Shown piece after piece: positions 3,551 through 55,818 of a DNA stretch of 64,000 nucleotides. The position numbers and the translations under genes are program-made. Every line of letters starts with the position of its first letter. The first letter of the stretch is position 1. The DNA comes from a bacterium. GTDB lineage: Bacteria; Patescibacteriota; Minisyncoccia; JACQLN01. The stretch spans positions 21,722 through 85,721 of the forward strand of contig JAUYOV010000006.1 in assembly GCA_030697795.1 (NCBI GenBank), read 5' to 3'. The notes under the pieces are model-generated. The model saw only the letters and a list, made by a program, of their open reading frames with translations. It was not told where the DNA came from and made no database searches.

Positions 3551-3602
3551 ATACCTTTAGTACACCGAGCATACGATCGTATGCTCGGTGTACTAAAGGT
3601 AT
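3551..3602. repeat. family A palindromic element, copy A1 (perfect 52-bp palindrome, core GAGCATACGATCGTATGCTC)
   Basis: atacctttagtacaccGAGCATACGATCGTATGCTCggtgtactaaaggtat. Intergenic. Confidence 0.85.
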
Positions 3603-3773
3603 ACCCCTCGACTTCCCTCAATTTGACTCGGGACAAGGTCGCTCAAGGTAATCCCTCGTCGCTCTGCCCCCTCGGGATATTTTTCGCCCTTATTTTTATA
3701 TTATATTGTTTGCGAAAAACAAAACCCGCAAGGTTTGACCTTGAACGGGTTACCCGGAATACTCCGGAAGTGC

Positions 3774-13961: not shown

Positions 13962-16916
13962 ATGTCTAGCCAAGATTACATCAAAATCCGCGGGGCGAGG
14001 GTGCATAATTTAAAAAATGTTAGTTTAGACATTCCCAAAAACAAGTTGGTGGTTATTACCGGCCTTTCGGGTTCGGGCAAGTCGTCGCTGGCGTTTGATA
14101 CGCTGTATGCTGAAGGGCAAAGAAGATATGTAGAAAGTTTGTCGGCTTATGCTCGGCAATTTTTAGGCATTATGGATAAGCCCGATGTGGATTCCATAGA
14201 TGGCTTGTCGCCGTCAATATCCATAGACCAAAAAAGCGTATCAAAAAATCCGCGCTCTACTGTTGGTACTATTACCGAAATTTATGATTACCTGCGTTTG
14301 TTGTTTGCTAGAGTCGGCAAACCTCATTGCCCCAAGTGTGATCGCGTAGTTTCGCGCCAAAGTCCAACGCAAATAACAGATAAAATTTTAAAATTTAAAA
14401 AAGGCACGGCTTTAGTAATTTTGGCGCCAATCATTCGCGATCAAAAAGGTGAACACAAAGCAGTTATTATGAAGTTATCAAATTCCGGCTATGCCAGAGT
14501 TAGAGTTAACGGTGAAATTTTAAAAGTTGAAGAAGCTTTAAAATTAAATTTAGAAAGATACAAGCGCCATTCAGTAGAAGCTGTGATAGACAGAGTGACC
14601 CTAGAAAGTGATCCCTCCTCCTTCGCCCCCACTTCGCCAAGGCTACGAGGGGCAAGCAGGGCTTCGGAGGACAAGGATCTTCGTGCTCGCATTGCGGAAT
14701 CCATAGAACAAGCTCTTAAATTAGGTGACGGTTTGATGATTGTCCAACACCTGGTGTTGGACAAGTATTCAAAAAAGGACCGCCCTTCCAGGAAGGGCGG
14801 TCCTTCCGAGGAGCTGTTTTCCGAAGCGATGTCGTGCGCTTATTGTGGTATAAATTTTCCAAATGTTGAACCAAGATCATTTTCTTTTAATAGCCCGCAC
14901 GGCGCTTGCCCGCATTGCACAGGTTTAGGTAATACCAAAGAAATTGATCCAGATTTAGTTTTTCCAAGCAAGCATATAACTTTGGCGGAAGGCGCCATTA
15001 AGCCGTGGGCTTCGGCTTCGCACCGCGTCGGCTACCAAGGTTGGTATTGGAGTATTGTGGAAGAAATTTCGCAAAAATACAGTTTTTCAGTTTCGGTGCC
15101 TGTAAAAGATTTACCGCAAAAATTTATAAACATTATTTTATATGGTGACAAAGATCGCGATGGCGATTTTGAGGGAGTTATTCCAAATTTATTGCGCCGT
15201 TACCGCGAAACCGAATCAGAATTTACCAGAGCCGAGATAGAACGCTATATGATAGATAAGGTTTGTCCGGTATGTAAGGGCGCACGTTTAAAGCCAGAAG
15301 TTTTAGCGGTTAAGTTTTTAGGAAAAAATATTAGCTATGTGGCAGATTTATCTATAAATGAATGCAAAAAGTTTTTTTCGGAGATTAAAGGTGGCCCTGC
15401 TTCGCTAAAGCTACGCAGGGTAAACTTAACCCAATCGGAGCTTCAAATAACTTTGCCAGTAGTTAAAGAAATTTTAAACAGATTAGATTTTTTGCTAAAT
15501 GTCGGGCTAGATTATTTAACACTTTCTCGTTCTTCGGCTACGCTTTCTGGTGGTGAAGCTCAACGTATTCGTTTAGCTACACAAATTGGTTCTGGTTTAA
15601 CAGGGGTTCTATATATACTAGACGAACCTTCTATTGGTTTGCATCAGCGCGATCAAAATAGGTTAATTAAAACGCTTAAACATTTACGCGACATCGGCAA
15701 CACTGTAGTGGTGGTGGAACATGATGAGCAGACTATCAATAATGCCGATTGGGTGATAGATGTAGGGCCGGGCGCGGGTAAACACGGCGGTAAAATAGTT
15801 TTTGAAGGAACGCCTCAACAGCTCAAAAAATCAGATAGCATTACAGGGCAGTATTTGTCTGGAAGGAAGAAAGTAGAAGGTGGAAAATTGAAAACGGAAA
15901 AGAAAAATTTATCTTCTACTTTCCATAATCTACCTTCTATTGTTATCAAAGGCGCACAGGAAAATAATCTCAAAAACATTACAGTCAAAATTCCCTTGGG
16001 ACAGTTTGTAGCAATCACGGGCGTTTCGGGTTCGGGTAAGTCTAGTTTGGTAAACGATATTTTGGCTAAATTTTTATTGCAAAAATTTTATAATGCTAAA
16101 GAATCTCCCGGAAAATTTACAGAAATAACTGGTTGGGAAAATTTAGATAAAGTTGTGGTGGTAGACCAAAGCCCGATAGGCCGAACACCGCGTTCTAACC
16201 CAGCCACATATACCGGAATGTTTAGTGTTATTCGCGATTTATTTGCCGCCACGCGCGAAGCAAAAGTTAGAGGTTTCGGGCCAGGCCGGTTTAGTTTTAA
16301 TGTAAAAGGCGGCAGATGCGAAGTGTGCGAAGGGCAGGGGGTAAGAAAAATTGAAATGCATTTTTTGCCCGATGTTTATGTGGAGTGCGAAGAATGCCAT
16401 GGCACGCGCTATAACAAAGAAGCGCTAGAGGTGGAATACAAAGGCAAAAATATTGCTCAAGTTTTAAAAATGCCGGTGGAAGACGCTTTTGAATTTTTTA
16501 AAAATATTCCCTCGTTAAAACAAAAAATTGGAACATTGCTGGAAGTCGGTTTAGGTTATATGGAATTAGGCCAGCCGGCTACCACATTGTCTGGCGGGGA
16601 GGCTCAAAGAATAAAACTTGCCACAGAATTATCGCGGCGCGATACGGGCAAAACTTTATATAGTTTGGATGAACCAACCACGGGTTTGCATTTTGAGGAT
16701 ATAAATAAACTGCTTAGGGTTTTGCATTTGCTGGTTGAAAAAGGCAATACGGTTTTAGTTATTGAACATAATTTGGATGTTATTAGAACGGCGCATCATA
16801 TTATAGACTTAGGTCCAGAAGGCGGTAATGGCGGAGGCAAAATTGTAGCGGTGGGCACTCCGCAGCAAATCAGCCAAACTAAAAATAGTTACACTGGACA
16901 GTTTCTGCGTAAGTGA
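13962..16916 (+). CDS. uvrA: excinuclease ABC subunit A
   Basis: Two ABC ATPase modules ([23 protein letters not shown]; [13 protein letters not shown]), Zn-finger Cys clusters, LSGGEAQR signatures. 984 aa because of three in-frame palindromic-element insertions. Confidence 0.95.
14777..14803. repeat. family B palindrome, copy B2, in-frame inside uvrA (encodes [12 protein letters not shown])
   Basis: aaaaaa-ggaccgcccttcc-a-ggaagggcggtcc. Same flank as terminator copy B1. Confidence 0.85.
15395..15420. repeat. family C hairpin, copy C2, in-frame inside uvrA (encodes [10 protein letters not shown])
   Basis: ccctgc-ttcgctaaagctac-gcaggg. Stem fully compensated relative to C1 and C3. Confidence 0.8.
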
Positions 16917-16918
16917 TC

Positions 16919-16953
16919 GGAAGGACCGCCCTTCCAGGAAGGGCGGTCCTTCC
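16919..16953. repeat. family B palindrome, copy B3, immediately after the uvrA stop (35-bp near-perfect palindrome)
   Basis: ggaaggaccgcccttcc-a-ggaagggcggtccttcc. Marks the left edge of a GC-rich island. Confidence 0.85.
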
Positions 16954-17047
16954 TGTACTCAATATTGACATTATTGGCAAATATTTGCTATGTTTTATGA
17001 GTTCTTTTTTAACTAATTTCCCAAAACCCTTTATAATGGGAGGAACT

Positions 17048-18106
17048 ATGAAACTCGGATTTTACAGCTTTGACGTAGCTCCAGGAAACAACATAGCTAT
17101 ACTGGCGGCCGAAGCCAGAAGAAGGGGGCATGAGGTAGTTGATCCCGAGAAACAAAAGCCGGTTAGTGATAGAGCCATGGTTGAACTCATGACTTGCGAT
17201 ATGGTTGTAACAGGGCTTTCGTCTTTTAAAACGGAAATGGAGCTCGATGTTGCGCGTTATTTGAAAAATGAGACCAAGTGGGTTGTGTTGGAAGACGTGC
17301 CAGAATCTTGTCTGCGGCCAAAGGCGCGTGATTTTGCCAACAGGGCAGATTTACTTTTGATGGCTCCTCATACCAAACCGGAAGATGCTGCACGTTTTGG
17401 TTTTAGGAGAAATATCTGCTTGGGTCCGCCTCCGCTCTGGGGCAAGGAATACAACGAACTGATAGCGGCTAAAGAAGCTAATGTCCGACAGAATATGGAG
17501 AAGGTTGTTATGGGTGGCAACCCCATACAGCTTCAGACTAGTGATGTCGTGGTCGGCTTGGTGGGTGGAAAAGATTCACCAATAAACGATCTAGTTCTTG
17601 GGATGCTCATTCAGGCGTTAGCTGGTCATCATAAAGCCGTTGTTGGTTTTAGCCAACATCCTGGTGAGAAGGCTACAAAACCAGAAGATGAAGAGCGTTT
17701 TACGCGCGCTTTTCAAGAGCGGGCTGAAATGTTGAGCCGAATTTGGCATCTTTCTAAAAACTGGAAAGGTGTTGAAGTTGGGGCTGTAGCAGATGTGATG
17801 ATTTACGCCGGTGGCACCAACGCCAGTATTTCGGGCGCCTATGCTAGGATTCCTGGTATCTATCTAGATCTTCCGGAAGTTCGGGCAAGAATGGTAACAC
17901 AAAGCGGTAAAGAAACATGGTTTGTGGCTGAACTTGGTGGAGCGCTTGTTGTGGACAACAAGGAAGATCTTGGCCCGATGATCAAAACTGCATTGAGCAA
18001 TGAAGGGAGACAGTATCTGCTTGATATGCAAGAGAAAAATTTTCCATTGCCTGAAGATTGGCATACGGAAAAGAAGATCATCGATTATTTGGAGTGTTTA
18101 GTTTAG
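17048..18106 (+). CDS. hypothetical protein (about 352 aa), GC about 48-50%, compositionally foreign
   Basis: Long ORF. Start chosen at MKLGFYSF with a GGAGG upstream. The ORF 16913.. N-terminal extension overlaps the palindrome and is unlikely. Confidence 0.5.
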   Translation: MKLGFYSFDVAPGNNIAILAAEARRRGHEVVDPEKQKPVSDRAMVELMTCDMVVTGLSSFKTEMELDVARYLKNETKWVVLEDVPESCLRPKARDFANRADLLLMAPHTKPEDAARFGFRRNICLGPPPLWGKEYNELIAAKEANVRQNMEKVVMGGNPIQLQTSDVVVGLVGGKDSPINDLVLGMLIQALAGHHKAVVGFSQHPGEKATKPEDEERFTRAFQERAEMLSRIWHLSKNWKGVEVGAVADVMIYAGGTNASISGAYARIPGIYLDLPEVRARMVTQSGKETWFVAELGGALVVDNKEDLGPMIKTALSNEGRQYLLDMQEKNFPLPEDWHTEKKIIDYLECLV

Positions 18107-18131
18107 GAAATTAGTGTATCCGCTCCGACCT

Positions 18132-18158
18132 CGTGTCGGAGCATTTTTAATTTTAGTT
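18132..18158 (+). terminator. rho-independent terminator (copy 1 of a duplicated terminator)
   Basis: gctccgac-ctcgtg-tcggagc + ttttt. A near-identical copy lies at 18817. Confidence 0.7.
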
Positions 18159-18318
18159 GTCCAAATGGCATAGTCAGCAATTTATGCGATCACATAAATT
18201 GCTGACCGGTGCTAATTATTGCAAGAAACTATACGACGCAAAATTTGGGTTGTCTTACTGGGGTTGACCCCGTTAGAGATCGCGCGGGCTCGTAGCGACC
18301 CCCCATCTCTAATTGGGG

Positions 18319-18346
18319 TTGACACCTTCTTGTATATACGTATAAT
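18319..18346 (+). promoter_or_regulatory. consensus sigma70-type promoter (TTGACA-16nt-TATAAT)
   Basis: Seen directly. Preceded by direct repeats ctggggttgac and an inverted repeat tagagat/atctcta. Confidence 0.55.
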
Positions 18347-18349
18347 GAA

Positions 18350-18846
18350 ATAGTTCACTAAAATAACACAGGTAGAGGTAATGGCGGGTCGCTTCAAGCG
18401 AACCTCACTAAAGGCGGGGCAGGGAACTCCCCTCCAGAGTACCAAACCCCGCTTGTAAGCCAAACAGGATTCCATATCGGGCTATGTCCGGTTTGGAATG
18501 TCCTCCCTCCCCACGATTCTCGTGAGTTGGGCGTGGTCCGATACCTGTTTAGCTGAAAGGCTGGATGCGACCGCTAGGCATCCAGCCCGAAATTAAAACT
18601 CTGCAAGGGCAGAGGATGTAGTTCTTTATAATTTTGTTTGGCCAGAAAGGTCTCTTGAAAACGAGTAGAGCTTTGCCTCTCGACCTCGTATTCTTCCCGG
18701 ATCTTTCTGGCCTTGTATAGTCGAGGAACTTTTACGGTTCATCTTCTCCTGTTCGTCTTTCTTCCTTTCAACGGATTGGGGTTGATTGCCGTGCAGAGGG
18801 AAGTTCCTCGCACTCCCGCTCCGACCTTGCGTCGGAGCGGTTTTTT
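18350..18846 (+). ncRNA. candidate structured non-coding RNA (about 500 nt), class unknown
   Basis: GC-rich (about 52%) segment with no convincing ORF, between a consensus promoter and a terminator. Multiple long-range complementary segments, e.g. ggccagaaag...ctttctggcc and ggctggatgc...gcatccagcc. Confidence 0.35.
18817..18846 (+). terminator. rho-independent terminator (copy 2)
   Basis: ccgctccgac-cttgc-gtcggagcgg + tttttt. Confidence 0.7.
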
Positions 18847-18911
18847 AATTCCCTACAGGAATCCCGCACAAAGTGCGGAGAGGAGATCATTTAATCTAGA
18901 TAGTTCAAATT

Positions 18912-18949
18912 ACGTGTCCTGAGCATACGATCGTATGCTCAGGACACGT
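18912..18949. repeat. family A palindromic element, copy A2
   Basis: acgtgtcctGAGCATACGATCGTATGCTCaggacacgt, a perfect 38-bp palindrome. Same core as A1 with different compensated arms. Confidence 0.85.
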
Positions 18950-19143
18950 TTCAGAATTTATATACATATTAAAAAATCACTAGAAAAATTTAGAAAACCA
19001 AAAGAGCTTGACCCTAGTTCTAACATTTGCTACATTATCAATCGTAATAGAAGAGTGATAAAATCATTTAGATAATAGAGCATAGAAGGTGGAAAGTAGC
19101 TTTAAATCTATCTTCTAAAATCTACTTTCTAAATTTCAAACAT

Positions 19144-19434
19144 ATGATAAAAATCAAACCACTATCAGATCGGGTCTTAATTGAACCCATGACCAAAGAA
19201 GAAAAAACTAAATCGGGAATTTATTTGCCTGATACGGTAGATAAAGAACGTCCCGAACAAGGCCGGGTTTTGGCGGTGGGTCCGGGCAAGGTTGATGATG
19301 GCGAAATTATAAAAATGTCTGTAAAAAAAGGCGATGTGGTTTTGTTTACCAAATATGGCCCTAACGAAATAAAGGTTGCTGGCAAGACTTATTTAATCGC
19401 ACGCGAAGATGATATACTCGCAATTTTGGAATAA
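19144..19434 (+). CDS. groES: co-chaperonin GroES
   Basis: MIKIKPLSDRVLIEP...GIYLPDT...GRVLAVGPG is the classic Cpn10 sequence. Confidence 0.9.
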   Translation: MIKIKPLSDRVLIEPMTKEEKTKSGIYLPDTVDKERPEQGRVLAVGPGKVDDGEIIKMSVKKGDVVLFTKYGPNEIKVAGKTYLIAREDDILAILE

Positions 19435-21981: not shown

Positions 21982-22575
21982 ATGGCTCATGACAGGTTCA
22001 CATTCAATAGCGCCGGCCAGACTCATGAACTGGAGATGGCGATGGATCGGGCTGGTGGGTACAATGCCGCGATAGTAAAGCGGATGTGCAAAGGTGATCG
22101 ACTCACGCACATTCGGGAATATCTTCTTGGCTTGGCCGAGATTACATATCCCGAGCACATCATCAACTGCAGTGCCGACCCGTTCGTGCCTGAAGGCTGG
22201 AGCGTGGAAGAGCATCAGAAGAGCGGTTCTTTCAAATGGAGTCCCGCCGAGGTGCAGTTCTACCTCTCCGAGCTTCAGAAGCAAGACAAGGTTATCAAGG
22301 GAGATGAGCTTCGCCATGAATTGGCAGGTAAGCCGGTTTACAACGCGAACGTTCTTGATTATCTGCTGGCTCACCCTCATTTGATTCCCGAAGCGTGGAA
22401 AAAAGATGAGCAGGGACGCACCCAATACATCTTTTTCTGGGGAACCATTTACCGCGGCCGGGGCGGCGGCCTCTATGTGCGTTGCCTTTGTTGGGGCGGC
22501 TGCGGGTGGGGCTGGGGCTGCGGCTGGCTGGGCGGCGGCTTCCGCGGCGGCGGCCCCGTGGCTCTGCGCGCATAG
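21982..22575 (+). CDS. putative DGR variable (target) protein; C-terminal Gly/Cys/Trp-rich variable region ending ...GFRGGGPVALRA
   Basis: GC about 58% ORF with own promoter and RBS. Its last about 40 codons equal the VR copy of a TR/VR repeat pair (see findings). Confidence 0.6.
   Translation: MAHDRFTFNSAGQTHELEMAMDRAGGYNAAIVKRMCKGDRLTHIREYLLGLAEITYPEHIINCSADPFVPEGWSVEEHQKSGSFKWSPAEVQFYLSELQKQDKVIKGDELRHELAGKPVYNANVLDYLLAHPHLIPEAWKKDEQGRTQYIFFWGTIYRGRGGGLYVRCLCWGGCGWGWGCGWLGGGFRGGGPVALRA
22451..22572 (+). repeat. variable repeat (VR), coding, 3' end of ORF 21982..22575
   Basis: 122 bp homologous to 22958..23079. Differs only where the other copy has A. GC-rich 3' end, then hairpin 22640-22672. 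Confidence 0.75.
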
Positions 22576-22957
22576 TACTTTGACCCTTGGAATCTTGGGC
22601 TTTTCTTTAGCCCTTGATCCCTTGGGTCTTTTTAATTTAACCCAGTCAGAAGTAAAACTTCTGACTGGGTTTTGTAAAAAATCTAAAATGAATTAAGATT
22701 AACTCGGATACTAGGCGAATCTGCCGGCGGTTACGGCTTCCGGCGGCCGAATTCCGAGGCAAGCTATGCCAGAGTGGGAACGGCCACGGCTTTTCCCAGC
22801 GTGCTAACTTGATCTCTAAAAAACAAAGATACTTGGTGTAGGGTGCTGGTGGATTAGTTTCGCTTTGGCGAACGAGATCCCAAATAAAATACAGCCTTGA
22901 GATCGGTTTGTTTTATAACCTTCTAGGGGCAGTGGTATGGATGGCATCCTATACGCA

Positions 22958-23079: not shown

Positions 23080-23273
23080 ACTATTTTTATTTCTCCCCAA
23101 TTATTTAGGGGAGTTTTATTTTTTTAAATATGATTGTTCAAGATGGTAAAGAACAGTCACTAATTTATGCTATAGCATTTTTTGATGACTATCATAGAGA
23201 TAGAAACAGCGTGACATCCGATGTCATTCAGCGGTGTTTATTATTTTACCCTTTATGTATATACTTTCTTTGT

Positions 23274-38993: not shown

Positions 38994-40106
38994 TCATTTG
39001 GCCAAATCCAAAAGGATTTGTGCCAGCTGGCTGGCTGCATCTATTTTAGCAAATTTTTTGGCATTTTCACTCATTGAATCTAACTCCGAACTGTTATTTA
39101 ATATTTTTTCAATTACTTCCTTTAGCTTGTCCAGTTCATTTTCTTTTAAAACAACAGCAGCCCCAGTTTTGGCATAAGAAGACGCATTGACCGGTTGATC
39201 TCCGTTTTTTCTTTCTAAGGGAATTAAAATGCTTGGTTTACCAAAAGCCGCCAGTTCAAAAATTGTTCCAGCACCGGCTCGACCAATGGCAATGTCGCAT
39301 AATGTATAAGCAGAAGCCAACTCTTTTTCGTTTAAAAATGGTACGATCTTTAAATTATTGTCCAACACCAGGTGTTGGACAGATTGATAATTAGCCGCGC
39401 CCACGCTCCAAATCATATTAAAATTTTCTAATAGATCAGGCAGTATTTTAAAAATAGCTTTATTTATTCTCTGTGCGCCTTGCGATCCCCCGCTAATAAA
39501 TATCGTACACCGAGCATACGATCGTAAGCTCGGTGTACTTTCCTTTGGTGGAAAATCAAGAATTTTTTCGGCTTCTTCTTTGGTTAAATCCAGATACTTT
39601 AATCTGACCGGATTACCTACTACCTGAATATTTTTGCCCGCGAAAAAATTCTTAGTTTCTTCAAAAGATACGACAATATTATTGGTTACATAAGAAAGGA
39701 ATTTATTAGCAAGCCCCGGTATTGCGTCGGACTCATGTATGATTATTTTCTTAAATAAAATTTCGGCAGCTAATACAGGTAAAACACTACCATAACTGCC
39801 CTTGCCCAAAACCACATCTGGATTTATCGAAACTACTATTATTAAAGATTGAAAAAATGCAAAAGGAATTTTAATAATTTCCCAAATATGTTTAAACGAA
39901 AAATATCGCCTTATTTTACCGGCGGCGATTATGGTTTTAACAATTACGCTTTCTTCTCGCAAGGCGTTTAGCGAAAATTCTTCTGGACCAACAAAATATA
40001 TTTTTGCCTCTGGCGCTAGTTTTTTGATGGCTCTAGCTACGGCTACCAAGGGTAAAACATGCCCACCAGTTCCCCCACCACAGAGCATTATCTTAGGGTT
40101 TTTCAT
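38994..40106 (-). CDS. murG: undecaprenyldiphospho-muramoylpentapeptide beta-N-acetylglucosaminyltransferase MurG
   Basis: MLCGGGTGGHVLPLVAVA, the ..ISGGSQGA.. G-loop. Carries an in-frame family A palindrome. Confidence 0.85.
   Translation of the reverse strand: MKNPKIMLCGGGTGGHVLPLVAVARAIKKLAPEAKIYFVGPEEFSLNALREESVIVKTIIAAGKIRRYFSFKHIWEIIKIPFAFFQSLIIVVSINPDVVLGKGSYGSVLPVLAAEILFKKIIIHESDAIPGLANKFLSYVTNNIVVSFEETKNFFAGKNIQVVGNPVRLKYLDLTKEEAEKILDFPPKESTPSLRSYARCTIFISGGSQGAQRINKAIFKILPDLLENFNMIWSVGAANYQSVQHLVLDNNLKIVPFLNEKELASAYTLCDIAIGRAGAGTIFELAAFGKPSILIPLERKNGDQPVNASSYAKTGAAVVLKENELDKLKEVIEKILNNSSELDSMSENAKKFAKIDAASQLAQILLDLAK
39505..39538. repeat. family A palindromic element, copy A3, in-frame inside murG (encodes STPSLRSYARCT just before the GGS G-loop)
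   Basis: gtacaccGAGCATACGATCGTAaGCTCggtgtac, one mismatch. Arms identical to A1. Confidence 0.85.
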
Positions 40107-41007: not shown

Positions 41008-41043
41008 CATACCGCGAGCATACGATCGTATGCTCGCGGTATG
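41008..41043. repeat. family A palindromic element, copy A4
   Basis: cataccgcGAGCATACGATCGTATGCTCgcggtatg, a perfect 36-bp palindrome. Confidence 0.85.
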
Positions 41044-55778: not shown

Positions 55779-55818
55779 ATCATACATTGAGCATACGATC
55801 GTATACTCAATGTATGAT
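55779..55818. repeat. family A palindromic element, copy A5
   Basis: atcatacattGAGCATACGATCGTATaCTCaatgtatgat, one mismatch. Arms again different but self-complementary. Confidence 0.8.

Follow-up and report, generated by a model that had tools for sequence, protein, structure and literature searches.

To our knowledge, bacterial non-coding RNAs (ncRNAs) that exceed 400 nt and adopt complex conserved folds fall into no more than about a dozen classes, none of which has been defined in the candidate phyla radiation (CPR). The large classes that are understood proved to be ribozymes or else unusual machines made of ribonucleoprotein or of RNA alone. CPR genomes are about 1 Mb in size and are thought to have lost most regulatory complexity. 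Among the RNAs that are still orphans, the raiA motif RNA (RF03072) is a structured ncRNA of Firmicutes and Actinobacteria, which has its own promoter and terminator and whose function is unknown.

We analyzed a 64,000-nt stretch of DNA, referred to below as the window, in which a first-pass annotation had postulated a large structured ncRNA, of unknown class and equipped with a promoter and terminator of its own. The overall proposal was supported, transcription itself being inferred. Positions 18352-18846 of the plus strand, which extend from the inferred start of transcription to the U-run of the terminator, very probably encode a stable structured ncRNA of about 495 nt that is transcribed independently and belongs to an undescribed family. 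The ends of the transcript are inferred only from promoter and terminator consensus because no expression data were available. Literature searches on ncRNAs of the CPR and Parcubacteria revealed no prior description of this RNA.

The Parcubacterial RNA resembles the raiA motif RNA in several respects. Both are highly structured, as predicted here for the Parcubacterial RNA, contain many conserved unpaired nucleotides, have their own promoter and terminator, and are of unknown function. Both also typically precede a stress-related gene at close range without serving as its leader. However, the two RNAs do not match in sequence or structure, the Parcubacterial RNA is approximately twice as long with a different helix layout, it adjoins groES rather than raiA, and it is found in a different phylum. 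The RNAs designated OLE, ROOL, and GOLLD provide a second point of comparison, since they share with the Parcubacterial RNA a size of more than 400 nt, a multi-helix organization, conserved junction nucleotides, the absence of coding capacity, a narrow phylogenetic range, and discovery by comparative genomics ahead of any function. In contrast to these RNAs, the Parcubacterial RNA is not accompanied by a gene for an OapA-type protein (the neighboring gene encodes a GT-B sugar enzyme), has no prophage or tRNA-cluster context, did not match any entry in the phage, plasmid, or viral-contig collections that were searched, and also occurs as a truncated form of 250 nt. Covariance models for OLE, GOLLD, HEARO, ROOL, and raiA did not match the window region or the homologues (Rfam 15 cmscan).

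The search with cmscan that the first-pass annotation had recommended was run against Rfam 15 (4227 families). At the gathering score, only two tRNAs were detected in the whole window, neither of them in the RNA. Lowering the stringency to E ≤ 10 for positions 18050-19150 returned only noise from miRNA models, originating from a palindrome downstream of the RNA, and no match was obtained within the RNA for eight homologous loci at E ≤ 5. Thus, no family was assigned either in the window or in the eight homologous loci. ARAGORN detected three tRNAs and no tmRNA in the window. The reported absence of RNase P, tmRNA, signal recognition particle (SRP) RNA, and riboswitch cores was borne out by the lack of Rfam matches and, for tmRNA, by the negative ARAGORN result. 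The RNA family is therefore new, without detectable relative, and known from one narrow clade of uncultured Patescibacteria resembling Parcubacteria and Minisyncoccia; newness is claimed here for the family alone.

Relatives were located via the product of the gene upstream of the RNA, the corresponding contigs were retrieved, and the RNA was found in the intergenic gap by nhmmer. A scan of genome contigs provided one related locus. A pattern scan of metagenome contigs provided two true homologues, five chance eukaryote-like matches being dropped. The distribution of the family is probably underestimated because the pattern used for the latter scan spanned the 3' domain only. The long form of the RNA was present in five lineages (the window, L001/L025, L006, L008/L032, and L009/L014), which are the only independent ones, and the collection additionally comprised two near-duplicates and two short forms. 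Pairwise identity of the RNA between the five long-form lineages was 60-75%. In every sufficiently long contig, the gene order was uvrA, the GT-B enzyme gene, a gap of 0.7-0.9 kb, groES, groEL, and lemA, and the RNA locus, which was single-copy in the window and in the homologous loci, was always located between the GT-B sugar enzyme gene and groES. This position was unchanged between lineages in which the neighboring protein displayed 46-63% identity. One relative, L031, had no space for the RNA at the syntenic position. The GroEL neighbors form a tight clade (about 25 clusters at ≥79% identity), with the public labels Patescibacteria group, Parcubacteria group, Minisyncoccia, and Sungbacteria, and the next GroEL relatives, at about 69%, belong to Wolfebacteria and Jorgensenbacteria. 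Because of this placement, the 'Saccharibacteria' label of L001 is probably loose. The public labels of the homologous contigs are consistent with the CPR host suggested by the first-pass annotation.

The σ70 promoter that had been recognized upstream of the RNA, TTGACA-16-TATAAT at 18319-18346 (plus strand), matches the consensus at 12 of 12 positions. No other full-consensus promoter exists in the 64-kb window, in which 0.07 would be expected. A counterpart, TTGAC(A)-17-(TG)TATAAT, was found in every homologous locus, with a spacer of 17 nt versus 16 nt in the window, and the -10 box was separated from a conserved GUUC by exactly 6 nt in the homologous loci. The promoter was kept in five to six long-form lineages and was present in a modified version in the two short-form loci. 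The strong terminator that had also been reported spans 18816-18846 (plus strand) and consists of a 10-bp stem (18816-18840) containing 8 G-C pairs, followed by TTTTTT. The stem corresponds to helix 11 of the pair count, with five covarying pairs, and the RNA ends in a terminator in every long-form lineage.

The G+C content of positions 18352-18848 was 50.7% versus 38.8% for the window, in agreement with the enrichment noted previously. The minimum free energy of the plus strand was -202.5 kcal/mol, versus -155.3 ± 6.3 kcal/mol for dinucleotide shuffles (z = -7.46), and the z-score of the minus strand was -6.03. As stated in the first-pass annotation, the region contained no credible open reading frame: the frames were short and none of them was maintained among the homologues. 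Neither the strand nor the position of the longest stop-free frames was constant among the homologues, and frameshifts distinguished two copies of the RNA with 99% identity. A protein-coding reading was rejected on the basis of these observations. With its own promoter, its own intrinsic terminator, a conserved structure, and no conserved reading frame, the RNA displays the features expected of an independent ncRNA unit, albeit one whose transcription is deduced rather than observed.

The consensus fold obtained with RNAalifold for seven long forms comprised 101 base pairs, 29 of which showed compensatory changes. The cleaned structure retained 92 pairs, with 94.3% of the cells paired. Changes on both sides of the pair were found for 29 of the 92 pairs, versus 15.5 ± 2.2 in column shuffles (none of the 500 shuffles reached 29) and 2 to 6 in slid controls, in which the partners were moved by 1 to 3 columns. 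The covariation score was 0.348, versus 0.217 for the shuffles and 0.056-0.102 for the slid controls. Four to five covarying pairs were counted in each of P5, P7, P8, and the terminator. The three long-range complementarities listed in the first-pass annotation, GGCCAGAAAGGTC/GATCTTTCTGGCC (18640-52 and 18700-12), GGCTGGATGC/GCATCCAGCC (18559-68 and 18578-87), and GCGGGG/CCCCGC (18414-19 and 18447-52), were all found and belong to helices backed by compensatory substitutions. G-U cells outnumbered A-C cells (66 versus 4), indicating that the plus strand is the folding strand. The limitation of this analysis is that the covariation statistics are descriptive, without an R-scape test, because just five independent lineages were available.

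Folding each sequence block by block led to the same architecture across all lineages and added helices P1, P6, and P9. The latter helices rest on the per-sequence folds rather than on pair counts because the plain MAFFT alignment placed them out of register (P6 was misplaced). Together, these comparisons showed that about ten predicted helices (P1 to P9 plus the terminator) have been kept intact through compensatory substitutions, with the support for P1, P6, and P9 coming from the per-sequence folds. Outside the helices, 80 of the 232 ungapped unpaired columns were invariant. Judged from the alignment, such invariant unpaired positions would be more typical of RNAs that adopt a tertiary fold or bind a partner than of simple base-pairing small RNAs (sRNAs). 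A search for pseudoknots and tertiary pairings among the conserved regions provided invariant candidates only, such as UCCUUU with AGAGGG, which are untestable because their sequence does not vary.

The long form is described here in window coordinates, all features being on the plus strand. The RNA starts with a conserved, predicted single-stranded 5' leader, AGUUCACUAAAAU (18352-18364), which is common to the long and short forms. A 5' hairpin (18371-18409) is present in the lineage of the window only (a gap in the alignment) and corresponds to an incomplete, inverted copy of positions 18288-18306 in the upstream element. The P1 hairpin (18412-18454) carries a conserved C-rich loop, (A)CUCCCCUCC, on a stem that reads GCGGGG/CCCCGC, GCGAGAC/GUCUCGC, or GGUUUCUGG/CCAGAAACC depending on the lineage. 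The following domain (18458-18554; helices 2 to 4 of the pair count) comprises P2 (18458-68 with 18544-54), P3 (18475-89 with 18529-43), and P4 (18512-16 with 18520-24), and contains the invariant C-rich junction CCUCCCUCCCC (18502-18512). Positions 18555-18587 hold the junction J2/5 (GAAAGG; GCUGAAAGG) and then P5, GGCUGGAUGC/GCAUCCAGCC (18559-87; helix 5), with pairing in 96% of the cells and compensatory changes in 5 of its 11 pairs. The next segment (18588-18629) consists of J5/6 (CGAAAUUAA), the P6 hairpin, and J6/7 (AGUUCUUUAU), both junctions being invariant. P6 (18599-18604 with 18609-18614), as deduced from per-sequence folds, shows compensatory variation between CUCUGC/GCAGAG and CUUCUAC/GUAGAAG. 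The long P7 hairpin (18640-18712) has a covarying middle stem (helices 6 and 7) and a pyrimidine-rich internal loop of the UCCUCC type. Finally, the 3' domain (18719-18814) is composed of P8 (18719-38 with 18788-814; helix 8), in which 100% of the cells are paired with four covarying pairs, and of P9 (18746-56 with 18771-81), which is closed by a 14-nt loop, CUUUCUUCCUUUCA (18757-70). The domain also includes the invariant sequence CGUGCAGAGGGAAGU (18790-18804).

Two more distant genomes (L019 and L029/L030) contained an RNA of about 250 nt at the same position, preceded by a similar promoter. This short form retains the 5' leader (AGUUCUCUAAA), a P2-type closing stem, the J2/5-P5 junction (GCUGAAAGG), and P7, the latter being the module that is best conserved between long and short forms. 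P1, P6, and the entire 3' domain are missing. Thus, the two forms have a core in common, to which the long form adds P1, P6, and the 3' domain, indicating that the RNA is modular. The alignment, the helix map, and the invariant nucleotides are sufficient for building a covariance model, surveying the Patescibacteria, searching for the transcript, and synthesizing the RNA for structural work.

A size of 250-500 nt, a very strong promoter, a single copy, and conservation throughout the clade are also the properties expected of a highly divergent housekeeping RNA (RNase P, tmRNA, SRP, or 6S RNA) missed by the Rfam models, and none of these four RNAs was detected elsewhere in the 64-kb window. We nevertheless regard this explanation as very unlikely. 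RNase P RNA contains a long-range helix, P4, formed by the regions CR-I (GGAAAGUCC) and CR-V (ACAGAA..GGCUUA), and its ends are joined by P1. tmRNA combines a tRNA-like domain (acceptor stem, T-arm, and CCA) with a reading frame for a tag peptide. SRP RNA, the partner of which is Ffh, is characterized by its domain IV hairpin, in which a GNRA loop is combined with symmetric and asymmetric loops that are conserved. 6S RNA is a rod of about 180-200 nt in which a large central bubble lies between the closing stem and the terminal stem. All supported helices of the Parcubacterial RNA are local, with neither a P4-type or other conserved long-range pairing nor a helix closing the 5' and 3' ends, which argues against RNase P RNA, and ARAGORN revealed no tRNA-like domain or tag reading frame. 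The serial arrangement of local hairpins also differs from the rod and central bubble of 6S RNA. 6S RNA and Ms1 are abundant RNA-polymerase-binding RNAs, which the Parcubacterial RNA resembles as a single-copy, strongly promoted, and presumably stable ncRNA retained across a clade, but it has no bubble mimicking an open promoter and no match to the 6S model. More generally, none of these families was matched at E ≤ 10 for the window locus or at E ≤ 5 for the eight homologous loci, and the 3' third of the molecule is dispensable since it is missing from the short forms. For SRP RNA, both ffh and ffs were reported to be missing from Parcubacteria (Nelson and Stegen, 2015; PMC4508563), although the presence of ffh in the host genome was not checked.

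The position of the RNA directly upstream of groES, in the same direction, in all recovered loci including those of the short forms, and the nature of the downstream cluster, which is related to proteostasis (groES, groEL, lemA, and htpX), raised the possibility that it is a cis-acting leader of groES-groEL, such as a riboswitch, an RNA thermometer, or an attenuator, with a regulated terminator. This adjacency is little informative because all neighboring genes are syntenic in the clade. Moreover, the terminator is strong (10 bp, 8 G-C pairs, U6) and conserved with covariation, it is followed by a poorly conserved spacer of about 290 nt, and no alternative anti-terminator pairing was found among the conserved helices. 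Beyond the terminator, groES has its own promoter, TTGACC-17-TACATT, which overlaps a CIRCE-like operator, TTATCAATC-N9-GAGTGATAA (19008-19061, plus strand), and is not part of the RNA. The same arrangement was detected in L001, L019, and L029, and a separate groES promoter and CIRCE-like operator lie beyond the terminator in all loci. The RNA is thus a separate transcription unit, and it lacks what a cis-regulatory leader would require with respect to the terminator, the dependence of groES on the upstream promoter, and the alternative pairing. A role as groES-groEL leader accordingly has little to recommend it. It is scarcely credible that the region is instead non-functional (a decayed pseudogene or the relic of a repeat or mobile element) or an unrecognized gene for a small protein. 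Local duplication is hinted at by two observations. The terminator of the upstream GT-B enzyme gene (18120-18148, plus strand) is paralogous to that of the RNA (25 of 29 nt), which places direct repeats on both sides of the RNA gene, the same likeness existing between the two flanking terminators of L009-type loci; and the 5' hairpin specific to the window repeats the upstream element in inverted form. These hints are set against the preservation of about ten helices through compensatory substitutions, the conservation of the promoter, the absence of any conserved reading frame, the single copy per locus, the lack of matches among phages, plasmids, and viral contigs, and a syntenic position that remained fixed while the identity of the neighboring protein fell to 46-63%. 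The first-pass annotation had named assignment to a known Rfam family, and the lack of conserved homologues or decay into a pseudogene, as outcomes that would refute its proposal. Neither outcome occurred, no family having been assigned and homologues being conserved in five lineages.

The retention of a strongly promoted RNA of 250-500 nt at a fixed locus, next to a gene whose product has diverged to about 46-63% identity, points to a function that minimal cells cannot lose. The upstream gene was considered as a source of a protein partner. Its product had no match in Pfam or NCBIfam, and the AlphaFold model (pLDDT of 93.9) displayed a GT-B fold, the best PDB matches being glycosyltransferases and UDP-sugar 2-epimerases. 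This candidate was rejected in view of its sugar-enzyme fold and of the occurrence of a distant homologue of the gene next to NeuB genes in the absence of the RNA.

The unpaired regions offered another lead. The long forms contained 11 to 17 CCUCC-type 5-mers (7 in L009) versus 2.5 to 4.4 expected, a 3- to 4-fold enrichment, and the observed counts were reached in at most 8 of 500 shuffles (21 of 500 for L009). These words are located at three to four conserved sites predicted to be unpaired, the C/U-rich patches corresponding to the P1 loop, the P3/P4 junction, the P7 internal loop, and the P9 loop. The complementary GGAGG-type words were not enriched, indicating that the CCUCC-type words are not merely one strand of internal helices. 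RNAIII and RsaE/RoxS of Staphylococcus aureus use C-rich loops to pair with G-rich ribosome-binding sites. The Parcubacterial RNA has the trait of such regulators, namely several conserved unpaired C-rich motifs, and similarly appears as a multi-hairpin RNA of about 0.5 kb in which these motifs are predicted to be exposed and are unmatched in cis by G-rich words. It differs from them by the lack of homology and of an identified target, by its host, which is nearly devoid of Shine-Dalgarno sequences, and by far more conserved junction nucleotides than are usual in base-pairing sRNAs.

Based on these features, our leading model, which remains a tentative inference, is that the RNA is a folded scaffold acting in trans. 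Its three or four conserved C/U-rich patches of the CCUCC type would be single-stranded and exposed, and would pair with G-rich RNA segments or else bind or titrate a protein, no target having been identified. Several observations do not fit with the pairing model. Complements of the two longest C/U-rich motifs were not present at above-chance numbers of sites in the 64-kb window. Shine-Dalgarno sequences precede only about 4 of 39 genes, and few G-rich ribosome-binding sites are available because the genome hardly uses them. The short forms showed no enrichment in C-rich motifs. Finally, the P9 tract reads ACCUCCUUUCUA in three lineages, like the 3' tail of 16S rRNA, and in these lineages, as in L008 and L009, it pairs in cis with an inserted GGAAAGGUGG. 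This pairing counts against an exposed tract, but it also shows the kind of partner sequence that the tract can bind.

By analogy with the orphan 'ornate' RNAs, the molecule might alternatively serve an unknown ribonucleoprotein as its RNA subunit or scaffold, or form an RNA-only assembly. This second reading is equally tentative, the two being of nearly equal likelihood. A broader and more doubtful proposal is that this large and modular RNA represents a new 'ornate' class confined to the CPR or Parcubacteria, in which protein-poor, reduced genomes would have retained a sophisticated biochemical or ribonucleoprotein function as RNA. Such an RNA could, for example, be a multivalent mimic of the 16S rRNA 3' tail that would bind G-rich RNA in a lineage nearly without Shine-Dalgarno initiation, an idea that rests on the occurrence of ACCUCCUUUCUA in three lineages and on the four CCUCC-type patches, or it could be an RNA-only or ribonucleoprotein assembly comparable to OLE, ROOL, and GOLLD.

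The region preceding the promoter contains additional repeats. The direct repeat reported there, ACTGGGGTTGA (18257) and ATTGGGGTTGA (18312), is present but not exact, 10 of its 11 positions being identical. The reported inverted repeat, tagagat/atctcta, is included in longer arms of 13 nt (18268-18280 and 18305-18317). These repeats form an upstream element (18253-18318, plus strand) that combines a direct repeat of the GGGGTTGAC (-35) box with an inverted repeat of 12-13 bp, CCCCGTTAGAGA...TCTCTAA(C/TT)GGGG. The conservation of this element extends to three lineages (the window, L008, and L009), and it is a possible operator or UP-like element. A third copy of the direct repeat was detected at position 18775.

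A 40-nt hairpin located at the 5' end of the structured RNA is present only in the copy of the window. Part of it (18381-18399) repeats, in inverted orientation, a stretch (18288-18306) of the element located upstream from the promoter, with 84% complementarity over 19 nt. The promoter, together with the initial 28 nt of the RNA, is thus flanked by inverted repeats. This arrangement raises the possibility that the RNA gene has an invertible promoter, although the other lineages provide no support for it. In L014, a homologous locus encoding the long form of the RNA, a run of N in the 2600-2700 region places the loop of hairpin P1 immediately after the upstream GGGCTTGA copy. This junction probably arose because the assembly collapsed the duplicated -35 repeat, rather than from a true deletion of the promoter.

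The RNA gene is also bracketed by direct repeats, since the terminator of the upstream gene (18120-18148) and that of the RNA (18816-18844) are near-identical (25 of 29 nt). The two terminators likewise resemble each other in L008 and in L009-type loci. These observations suggest duplication or gene conversion, and the origin of the repeats remains unexplained. A short distance 3' of the RNA terminator, a perfect 38-bp palindrome (18912-18949) is one of five copies of the motif (C/T)GAGCATACGATCGTATGCTC(G/A) dispersed over the 64-kb window (the others at 3566-3587, 39511-39532, 41015-41036, and 55788-55809), versus none expected. The palindrome is absent from the equivalent position of L001, another long-form locus. 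The dispersed motif may represent a REP-like element, serve as an operator, or terminate transcription in both directions.

Further downstream, a CIRCE-like inverted repeat, TTATCAATC-N9-GAGTGATAA (19035-19061), overlaps the groES promoter. The repeat is kept across the clade (L001, about 1535-1561; short-form loci L019, about 3747-3773, and L029, about 2722-2748) and is probably a divergent HrcA operator.

The "hypothetical" gene (16913-18106) upstream from the RNA encodes P0001 (352 aa), and its true start is probably the ATG of MKLGFYSF…. P0001 is confidently predicted to adopt a GT-B fold, as found in glycosyltransferases and UDP-sugar 2-epimerases, and no model in Pfam or NCBIfam covers its family. 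A second GC-rich spike (peak at 22400-22600, 65%) is protein-coding sequence and not an RNA: it specifies the C-terminal tail, rich in Gly, Trp, and Cys (…GGCGWGWGCGWLGGGFRGGG…), of a hypothetical protein of 197 aa, the gene of which (21982-22575) lies between lemA and htpX. Neither the protein nor the spike matched any entry in Pfam, NCBIfam, or Rfam.

In the 5' region of htpX (23100-23130), ca. 17 nt upstream from the start codon, lies AGGGGAGUU, the exact complement of the AACUCCCCU carried by the P1 loop of the RNA (18425-18433). By itself, a match of 9 nt is no more than expected by chance, and it was assessed in the window only, the other loci ending before htpX.

Inspection of the start regions of 39 long open reading frames from the whole window revealed an upstream Shine-Dalgarno-like motif in only about four of them. 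The starts of groES and groEL are preceded by AT-rich tracts of the UUUCUAAA type. The lineage therefore appears to be poor in Shine-Dalgarno motifs.
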